Assembly: GCA_951406725.2 (NCBI GenBank)
Contig: OX597826.1
Location: 74,710,001-74,774,000, forward strand
Source: Octopus vulgaris
Taxonomy: Eukaryota
Length of the DNA stretch: 64,000 nt
Direction: 5' to 3'
In this document: piece after piece, positions 45,722-47,277 of the stretch
Position numbering within the stretch: the stretch's first letter is position 1
Layout: each line of letters opens with the position of its first letter
Position numbers and translations under genes: made by a program
The notes under the pieces: model-generated
Told to the model about the DNA's origin: nothing
The model's input: only the letters and a program-made list of their open reading frames with translations
The model's database searches: none

Positions 45722-45778
45722 TTAAGTTTCTTCTGCTTCCTCCTCTTCAAACTCGCCTTCTTCCTCGGCTGTTGCATC
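45722..45778 (-). CDS. TUBB: Beta-tubulin last exon, acidic C-terminal tail
   Basis: gtccag acceptor. Reads DATAEEEGEFEEEEAEET*, containing the EGEFxxx motif; TAA at 45724-45722. Confidence 0.97.
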   Translation of the reverse strand, partial: DATAEEEGEFEEEEAEET

Positions 45779-46060
45779 CTGGACAAAAAGATTAAGAATT
45801 ATCTACTTTGGCGAAGTTTGGTTTTATTATATACTAAAAAAAGAAGGTCAACTTCGCTTTTTATCAATTCTTTTTCAATAGAATAAAGTACCGGTCATGT
45901 ACTGCGGTCGATGGTATTGACGTTCCCTCAAAATTACTGGCCTTGATTCTAAATCAGAAACCATTATATAAAAATAGACTTGATTACGGAATCCATGATA
46001 TTATGAAGGAAGAATGGGTGTTAGTAAAACAGAAGAGGTGTAAGTAAACCGGAAAATACT

Positions 46061-46388
46061 AACAATTGCGGCGTGGAAGGTGTTTCTAAGCCAGTTAAGA
46101 AACACACAAAAACCGTTAGATTCACTTCAACATTTAAATTTATTTTGTCAAAATATTTTCGTCGCTTTGAGACCGCGACCTGTTCATTGCAGCACGAAGT
46201 TTTGTCAGTGAACAGTTCGCGGTCTCAAAGCGACGAAAATATTTTGACAAAATAAATTTAAATGTTGAAGTGAATCTAACGGTTTTTGTGTGTTTCTTAA
46301 CTGGCTTAGAAACACCTTCCACGCTGCAATTGTTTTCGTTCCAGCACACGATCTCAGATCAAGTCACTCGCTATGCAAGTACATCTCC
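46061..46388. mobile_element. Palindromic Penelope-like pLTR insertion in the last beta-tubulin intron
   Basis: Inverted arms 46061-46186 and 46209-46334 (2 mismatches). Direct repeat ccggaaaatactaa at 46049-46062 and 46387-46400. Carries a hammerhead motif. Confidence 0.8.
46200..46252 (+). ncRNA. Minimal type I hammerhead ribozyme, G3:C8 core variant
   Basis: TTTTGTCA-GTGAACA-G-TTCGC-loop-GCGAC-GAAA-ATAT-TT-TGACAAAA. Stem I is 8 bp, stem III is palindromic, and the opposite palindrome arm has perfect stem II GTCGC/GCGAC. Confidence 0.65.
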
Positions 46389-46660
46389 GGAAAATACTAA
46401 GTAAACCAGAAAAGATGTTAACAAAAATATGTGTGGAGAAAACAGATGTTGAAAGAGAAAAGGTGTTAACGAAACGGAATAAAAGTGAACAAAAGAGAAA
46501 GGATGTTAACGGAAGATTATGATAAATATATTAGTCTCAACTAAAAACAAATACAATTCTTTATCCAGCCTATATTGTTGTACAATAACTAAAGTAAAAC
46601 AAGAAACACTCAATTAAAGAAAATGGATCTCACCAAAACAAAAATTATTAGAGTGTAGAA

Positions 46661-46957
46661 CAGTTCTTCTCAACCTTTTTTTTTTTTACTTATGGACCCC
46701 TTCCTTTCTTATTTTATTTGGATGGAAACCCTGCCTCATTGCCATTCAATGTTTCAAAAGAAGTAATATATTTTTTATAATTAAATATTAGGAATCTTAA
46801 AAATTACTAAGAAAATGTGGAAATATTTTGTGCTTTGCAGTCGTATAACCAATTTATTGCAGATAAATTTTAACAATAAAATCTTATTTAGACCTCCAAG
46901 GGTTATATGATTCCCCAAGGGTTATATGGTTACATGTACCCTGGTTGAGAAGCATTG
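46661..46957. mobile_element. hAT-type MITE with 8-bp TSD
   Basis: TIRs cagttcttctcaacc / ggttgagaagcattg; flanks gtgtagaa / gtatagaa. Confidence 0.75.
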
Positions 46958-47055
46958 GTATAGAATAAAAAGTAGTTGTCTCAAGCAATTTTGGCTCTTA
47001 GTAAGAATATTACTGCAAAACCGACGACCTCAACCGCCTTCGTAGACCCCCATCA

Positions 47056-47277
<222 letters not shown>

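Follow-up and report, generated by a model that had tools for sequence, protein, structure and literature searches.

What is the insert of 338 bp that sits in the final intron of an Octopus vulgaris beta-tubulin gene, and does it carry a natural hammerhead ribozyme in which the two bases of the core pair 3:8 have changed places? The locus lies in a window of 64,000 nucleotides, the whole stretch analysed here (GCA_951406725.2, contig OX597826.1, positions 74,710,001 to 74,774,000), and coordinates below are window positions unless a genomic locus is named. A preliminary description had proposed a compensatory C3G/G8C hammerhead within a palindrome flanked by a 14-bp TSD, and had assigned it to a young mobile ribozyme family. 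Palindrome and direct repeat are indeed where that description put them (Table 1). The arms, of 129 nt each (46061-46189 and 46206-46334), are 98% complementary, differing at 3/127 positions (46208 at the junction, 46216 with G>T, and 46325). Both copies of the 14-nt repeat are identical; since 3 nt of the right copy and 2 nt of the left also match element sequence, 14 bp is an upper bound for the TSD. A short imperfect direct repeat already existed at the target site (46041-46056 and 46398-46413), so the insertion landed in a duplication with a 19-bp period.

Table 1. The insertion, its hammerhead motif and the surrounding host gene, in window coordinates
Feature	Position	Strand	Basis or remark
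TSD, left copy	46049..46062	+	direct repeat; last 2 nt common with inverted arm, from family-copy comparison
Inverted 5'-truncated pLTR copy without tail	46061..46186	-	begins at hammerhead U4
Junction base between arms (earlier 'A3')	46187	.	arm comparison versus family alignment
Direct pLTR copy	46188..46334	+	begins where short family copies share a 5' end
Minimal type I hammerhead motif	46200..46252	+	motif reading, folds, family and cross-family alignment
Stem I	46200-46207 / 46245-46252	+
Core GTGAACA	46208-46214	+	G3 46208, C8 46213
Extra G after core	46215	+
Stem II	46216-46220 / 46230-46234	+	G10.1>U here
GAAA	46235-46238	+
Palindromic stem III	46238-46243	+	4-nt palindrome
Predicted cut	46244/46245	+
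PLE ORF start	46301..46389	+	here ATG>CTG and codon 3 a stop; longer copies L092, L093 are intact
PLE 'tail'	46335..46389	+	stretch between two preferred 3' ends of family copies
TSD, right copy	46387..46400	+	direct repeat; first 3 nt also fit element
Last beta-tubulin exon, acidic C-terminal tail and stop	45722..45778	-	translation
Last beta-tubulin intron, holds insertion	45779..47103	-	GT and AG ends; flanking exon identity
Beta-tubulin exon part, residues 387-426	47104..47223	-	40/40 identical to solved beta-tubulin

The insert is a 5'-truncated Penelope-like element (PLE), made up of an inverted pLTR, a direct pLTR, a tail and a TSD. Palindrome and TSD together are an ordinary PLE insertion scar, the layout of inverted pLTR, tail and TSD being known from rotifer and other PLEs (PMC3846280, PMC8557442; here and below, statements on published work concern the parts of each source available to us). 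The inverted arm begins at U4 and is therefore without the 5' strand of stem I and without position 3. The missing stem I strand had been seen correctly, but the 'A3' reported there as a ribozyme variant is a single junction base, at which family copies carry G. A fold and motif check found no complete ribozyme on the tubulin-sense strand, where the hairpin folds at -236.8 kcal/mol (z -25); in this model the host pre-mRNA would form a 126-bp hairpin devoid of a complete ribozyme, in line with the earlier expectation.

The anatomy claimed for the motif, with core GUGAACA, stem I, stem II, GAAA and palindromic stem III, can be read off the forward strand as described. A 32-mer of the core occurs twice in the window at up to 3 mismatches, against 0 occurrences in 100 shuffles. 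The literal consensus CUGANGA / GAAA / UH fails at positions 3 and 8, occupied by G and C, and standard searching misses the motif, as had been foreseen: Rfam gave no hammerhead family at E<=10 and returned sub-threshold miRNA hairpins only. The single stem II change noted for the right arm is real and strikes G10.1, in the closing pair. The reported copy, being without G10.1, is likely impaired; its fold is able to shift by one base despite the loss. With U at 10.1, its ATG lost and a stop codon gained, the copy is damaged. The window holds a second copy of the pLTR unit at 5093-5298 (+), which is 92% identical and has G3-C8 but a damaged GAAA; it bears a short inverted piece 5', its common start is preceded by an extra G, and it is flanked by (TA)n.

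The 2.8-Gb genome was searched for other copies. The 197-bp right arm plus tail yielded 2,073 candidates, and all 40 of these that were scored were 96-100% identical over nearly the whole query; one 28-mer had 4,954 exact genomic matches, its reversed control 0. A pattern search leaving positions 3 and 8 free gave 6,905 matches, with G3-C8 in 6,323 and G3-G8 in 220 (about 3%), so that the exchange proposed from one locus proves natural and conserved among copies. Among the first 100 matches listed, 95 were G3-C8 and 0 were C3-G8, and copies chosen by a downstream pattern had G3-C8 in 70/79, with the remaining core positions canonical in 72-79 of 79 and position 10.1 a G in 77/79. Stems I and II, G10.1-C11.1, the extra base before 10.1 and the palindromic stem III are all the family majority. 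Contigs from four runs under four organism labels showed no alternative letter at >=10% at position 3 or 8. G3-C8 is the family norm.

The G3-G8 copies are spread over many chromosomes and occur against several subfamily backgrounds, and 220 dispersed copies of this kind indicate that spreading does not strictly depend on the pair. They have diverged as much as G3-C8 copies (0.042 vs 0.044), so no order can be assigned, and the idea that they are an older intermediate was dropped. Changes common to subfamilies are located in loop II, in the region of distal stem I and downstream, and include C8>G; the one within stem I is wobble-compatible. An apparent covariation in distal stem I (unit positions 8 and 68) was rejected, since these positions are not paired in folds and reflect subfamily linkage. 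A long-pLTR subfamily is concentrated on contig C16, which holds 31 of the best 40 full-length matches, and 125/220 G3-G8 matches are on C16 or later contigs.

To what kind of element does the unit belong? Among the first 30 copies, 3 had upstream DNA in common, and following it uncovered a GIY-YIG frame; the unit lies downstream of the end of GIY-YIG on the same strand at 20/25 loci, including 8/8 long loci, where it sits about 1 kb past the stop codon. At L092, L093, L099, L104-L107 and L109 the unit continues across the tail into the ORF's start, and a pLTR also lies upstream of where the ORF begins in L093 and others. Open frames span 646-1,025 aa in 8/8 long loci, and the ORF reaches about 1,070 aa in all once the start encoded by the tail is included. 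It contains DKS, YVDD, a CX3CxxC linker and GIY-YIG. The RT motifs were read by eye, Pfam giving no RT model match on the long ORFs; GIY-YIG (PF01541, E 1.7e-5) was above cut-off in 1/2 long ORFs and 2/2 C-terminal pieces, and the CX2-5CxxC linker had one match, at residue 710 of L084. An inverted copy adjoins 53/100 arms by a loose test, flanks are mostly (TA)n, and clear non-microsatellite TSDs are seen in 4/30 copies. Several features of EN+ PLEs are present: an ORF with RT and GIY-YIG, flanking pLTRs, an ORF-derived tail, an inverted 5'-truncated copy, and a TSD or AT-rich target. A linker of the form CX2-5CxxC between RT and EN is a mark of Neptune and Nematis (PMC8557442), and by this motif the parent would be assigned to the two clades jointly rather than to either. 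The Neptune and Nematis EN+ PLEs (Craig et al. 2021, PMC8557442) are alike in their single ORF with RT, C-terminal GIY-YIG and this linker, in (TA)n preference, and in the inverted 5'-truncated copy and tail. In contrast to those elements, whose tails measure 30-40 nt, the octopus family has a tail of about 57 nt, and its pLTR includes some 1 kb of DNA rich in microsatellites. Fragments of a different, Hydra-like PLE family (L039:302-1069 and L053) were seen beside family copies.

Other origins for the unit were weighed against this parentage. The near-perfect 126-bp arms would suit a foldback or MITE-type DNA element, or a microRNA-like hairpin resembling a hammerhead by chance, and Rfam does report a MIR8675 match (E 2.5e-7). 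However, the score of 46.1 is far under the 90.8 cut-off, arm length varies, the inverted arm is often absent and the tail is asymmetric, with no fixed terminal inverted repeats, and the RT-GIY-YIG parent loci running into the unit rule such readings out; we give them a vanishingly small probability. Closer to the preliminary description is a family of retrozymes or SINE-like ribozymes that is independent and non-autonomous and borrows PLE enzymes. Most copies are 150-210 bp and have no ORF, and at L106 (G000:C28:4994870-4997945) at least 7 pLTR units without tails stand in tandem with (TA)n between them, an arrangement that is retrozyme-like and derived from a PLE end. Non-LTR retrozymes (Li et al. 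2026, 10.64898/2026.07.22.740005) are likewise short, non-coding, PLE-pLTR-related units with a type I hammerhead. They are defined by tandem units, though, whereas the octopus copies are dispersed in the main, mostly as single units or inverted pairs of the same kind as the parent's pLTR; moreover, the unit is the pLTR plus ORF start of an autonomous element, and long and short copies have identical subfamily variants. Evidence from the parent loci has largely refuted this second reading, which we consider improbable. What the preliminary description said of mobility and fairly young age stands, but its stand-alone ribozyme family does not, the unit being the pLTR of an autonomous PLE.

Pair 3:8 was also compared across relatives of the parent. 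A sister octopus family, with 54% aa identity and 100/100 support as sister in a 12-row tree restricted to relatives, combines C3-G8 with C9, with a swapped A-U in stem II and with G-C at 15.2-16.2 at 30/30 loci. This family (L115-L144; e.g. L120, G000:C17:6331579-6336951) is very young, its copies being 99% identical with open frames of 1,312 aa; its N-terminal part contains a long insert rich in asparagine, and its hammerhead has C at position 9. Among 78 metagenomic loci related to the parent, the 3' side was examined in 15 without requiring pairing at 3:8. Seven of the 15 have a motif 100-400 nt past the ORF, all Watson-Crick at 3:8: U3-A8 in L146, L147, L148 and L163, C3-G8 in L149 and L159, and A3-U8 in L152 (2793-2865), where stem I pairing is weak. 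Another 4/15, with 235-1,613 nt of 3' sequence, have no motif under the descriptor used, and a further 4/15 had <100 nt of 3' sequence. In ten aligned rows 90% of cells pair, a level reached by 0/500 shuffles and compared with 27-49% for slid controls; as the rows were picked by their fit to the hammerhead descriptor and are related by descent, this statistic overstates the strength of the pairing. Watson-Crick pairing at 3:8 with covarying stems across relatives indicates that the pair is under selection across the clade, and the copy count and covariation put forward in the preliminary description as a check both bear out its exchanged pair. A looser genome pattern, read at the level of the motif, found further octopus motifs that have C3-G8, U3-A8, U3.G8 and, once, C3.U8. 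The U3.G8 wobble group (G000:C1:47718947, 56516568, 79618253 and 99302010) is a possible bridge between C3-G8 and U3-A8.

How the copies arose was addressed by mapping the ends of 100 arms, taken in chromosome order and picked by a pattern downstream of the cut site. The 3' ends are bimodal, at unit positions 139-152 in 42/100 arms and 195-203 in 58/100, and the sister family also has two 3' ends, at homologous codons. Two internal RT start sites have been demonstrated for Anolis Poseidon (PMC11167929), and the two octopus ends match them; in Poseidon_Ac (Frangieh et al. 2024, PMC11167929), as proposed here, the two starts lie in the 5' end of the ORF and define the tail, targets are AT-rich and the template is uncut RNA. 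At the 5' side, 47/100 arms begin within -10 to +4 of the unit start and no more than 8 further upstream, a pile-up just upstream of the ribozyme of which we found no mention in the available text of PMC11167929. Most arms (84/100) begin before the cut site and span it intact, and the 2/100 that begin at it are both accounted for by a deletion or an inversion junction. That 84 copies span the cut site and 47 begin just 5' of the ribozyme suggests that uncut RNA likely templates insertion, and the former count argues that the template does not owe its 5' end to cleavage. A non-genomic G precedes the start in 21/38 short copies that keep AG (p 7e-5 against a rate of 0.25), though in only 8/21 of a position-ordered sample (p 0.13), and an initiator-like TCA, as described at the start of rotifer pLTRs (PMC3846280), stands exactly at the common start. 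The extra G reads as RT running to a capped 5' end.

We propose that the GIY-YIG domain nicks AT-rich DNA and that RT would start internally on the RNA, within the first 31 codons, at either of two sites separated by about 57 nt. Starting at the 5' pLTR-ORF junction, it would have no more than about 150 or 206 nt to copy before reaching the RNA 5' end, probably a capped transcription start, and joining of a second cDNA head-to-head would create the palindrome. The template would be uncut RNA, and if so we suggest that the ribozyme is slow or gated; the reported copy would be a damaged passenger, antisense in the tubulin intron. Sequence analysis suggests that the natural G3-C8 hammerhead likely still cuts RNA, slowly, and we rate as somewhat better than even the prospect that it is catalytic in some context. 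In folding, the monomer does not outdo shuffled sequence (z -0.8 to -1.5), the energy model does not produce the stem III exchange in the dimer, and cut templates leave no trace among the 100 sampled arms. The dispersed G3-G8 copies, C at position 9 in the sister family and the one C3.U8 octopus motif also count against this account. In favour of activity stand the covariation of pair 3:8 and of the three stems across the clade, and an engineered change: in a protein-dependent PLE hammerhead, C3G/G8C gives a partial rescue (PMC11167929), and the state it creates is the natural one in octopus.

Two rivals to this account share its PLE origin. One places a splice acceptor at the common 5' end, so that the template would be a spliced RNA with a very short first exon. 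Sequence resembling a branch point, a pyrimidine tract and YAG lies upstream of that end, the 5' intron of Penelope ends at helix I (PMC4209133), and T precedes G in 10/21 extra-G copies, with 10 nt common to two unlinked loci. A search for a spliced leader, however, found no common exon in most copies, no matching donor occurs in two full 3' UTR/pLTR sequences, and the initiator-like TCA falls exactly at the start, as in rotifer pLTRs; we think splicing unlikely, if a serious contender, and templates would be uncut under it too. The other rival, to which we assign a slightly lower probability, holds that the hammerhead is vestigial, with G3 and C8 kept by an overlapping internal promoter or arising by chance pair-restoring changes. 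The core lies about 20-35 nt past the common 5' end and the internal promoter of Penelope has a downstream element (PMC2377424), the cut site is spanned by the great majority of arms with no pile-up there, the G3-G8 copies are dispersed, and hammerhead cleavage is dispensable for insertion in vitro, mutants still inserting (PMC11167929). Yet a chance double change restoring the one tertiary pair is unlikely, 3:8 is Watson-Crick in the sister family and in 7/7 metagenomic motifs, a promoter acting as DNA would have no use for the covariation seen in stems I-III, and G3-G8 is a small minority. Starting from the observed element structure, RT and GIY-YIG parent, family-wide G3-C8, and covariation of 3:8 and the stems, we hold it quite probable that the locus as a whole is a 5'-truncated PLE insertion with a family-wide G3-C8 hammerhead, likely to cleave itself slowly as a dimer or with the help of protein.

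We know of no natural G3-C8 hammerhead, having met this pair only as an engineered rescue. In other respects the octopus motif resembles the minimal type I hammerheads of PLEs (Cervera and de la Peña 2014, PMC4209133), which likewise lie in pLTRs, have an extra nucleotide between 9 and 10.1, G10.1-C11.1 and palindromic 15.2-16.2, occur as thousands of dispersed single motifs, and are predicted to act as dimers with low activity. Unlike these, the octopus family has U17, and its stem I of 7 bp is extended distally; and whereas their consensus is CUGANGA, with U3-A8 in Schistosoma the only core covariation, the octopus family has G3-C8. Natural 3:8 covariation also occurs among the core variants of Perreault et al. 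(2011, PMC3088659), as U3-A8 only, G3-C8 and A3-U8 not being described in the text available. Natural U3-A8 is thus in print (PMC3088659, PMC4209133), while G3-C8 appears as an engineered change (PMC3884650, PMC11167929); natural G3-C8 or A3-U8 was not found in our literature search, outside which the large Lünse 2017 survey fell and may hold them. That search returned no report from octopus, and a 2026 paper on O. vulgaris repeats counts Penelope families with the word ribozyme absent from the text we had. Two motifs of the octopus family were absent from the supplement of PMC8557442, as far as this was available; its hammerhead table has every motif starting with CTGA, and its methods, like published hammerhead searches in general, fix the core as CUGANGA. 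Such searches will miss families of this kind, and some 'no ribozyme' calls for PLEs may be wrong. A natural G3-C8 core at high copy number is apparently unreported, the PLE scar itself being of a known kind.

The G3-C8 family, with >6,000 copies, and its C3-G8 sister form a matched pair for testing the interchangeability of the core pair in vivo, and the 84/100 copies that span the cut site bear on the role of the hammerhead in PLEs. Octopus is an animal with heavy A-to-I editing, and its thousands of short palindromes could be substrates for editing or small RNAs. It is possible, if somewhat doubtful, that the PLE clade has cycled 3:8 through C-G, U-A, A-U and G-C, U.G and G.G also being present in the genome, and that the octopus G3-C8 ribozyme is naturally throttled, gated by dimer or protein, about 60 nt past the cap. 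Were this true, a throttled ribozyme would leave most transcripts uncut, internal RT priming on their first 150-206 nt would give rise to SINE-like solo pLTRs by the thousand, many of them palindromic, and the copies would be an in vivo record of uncut, capped RNA as the PLE template.
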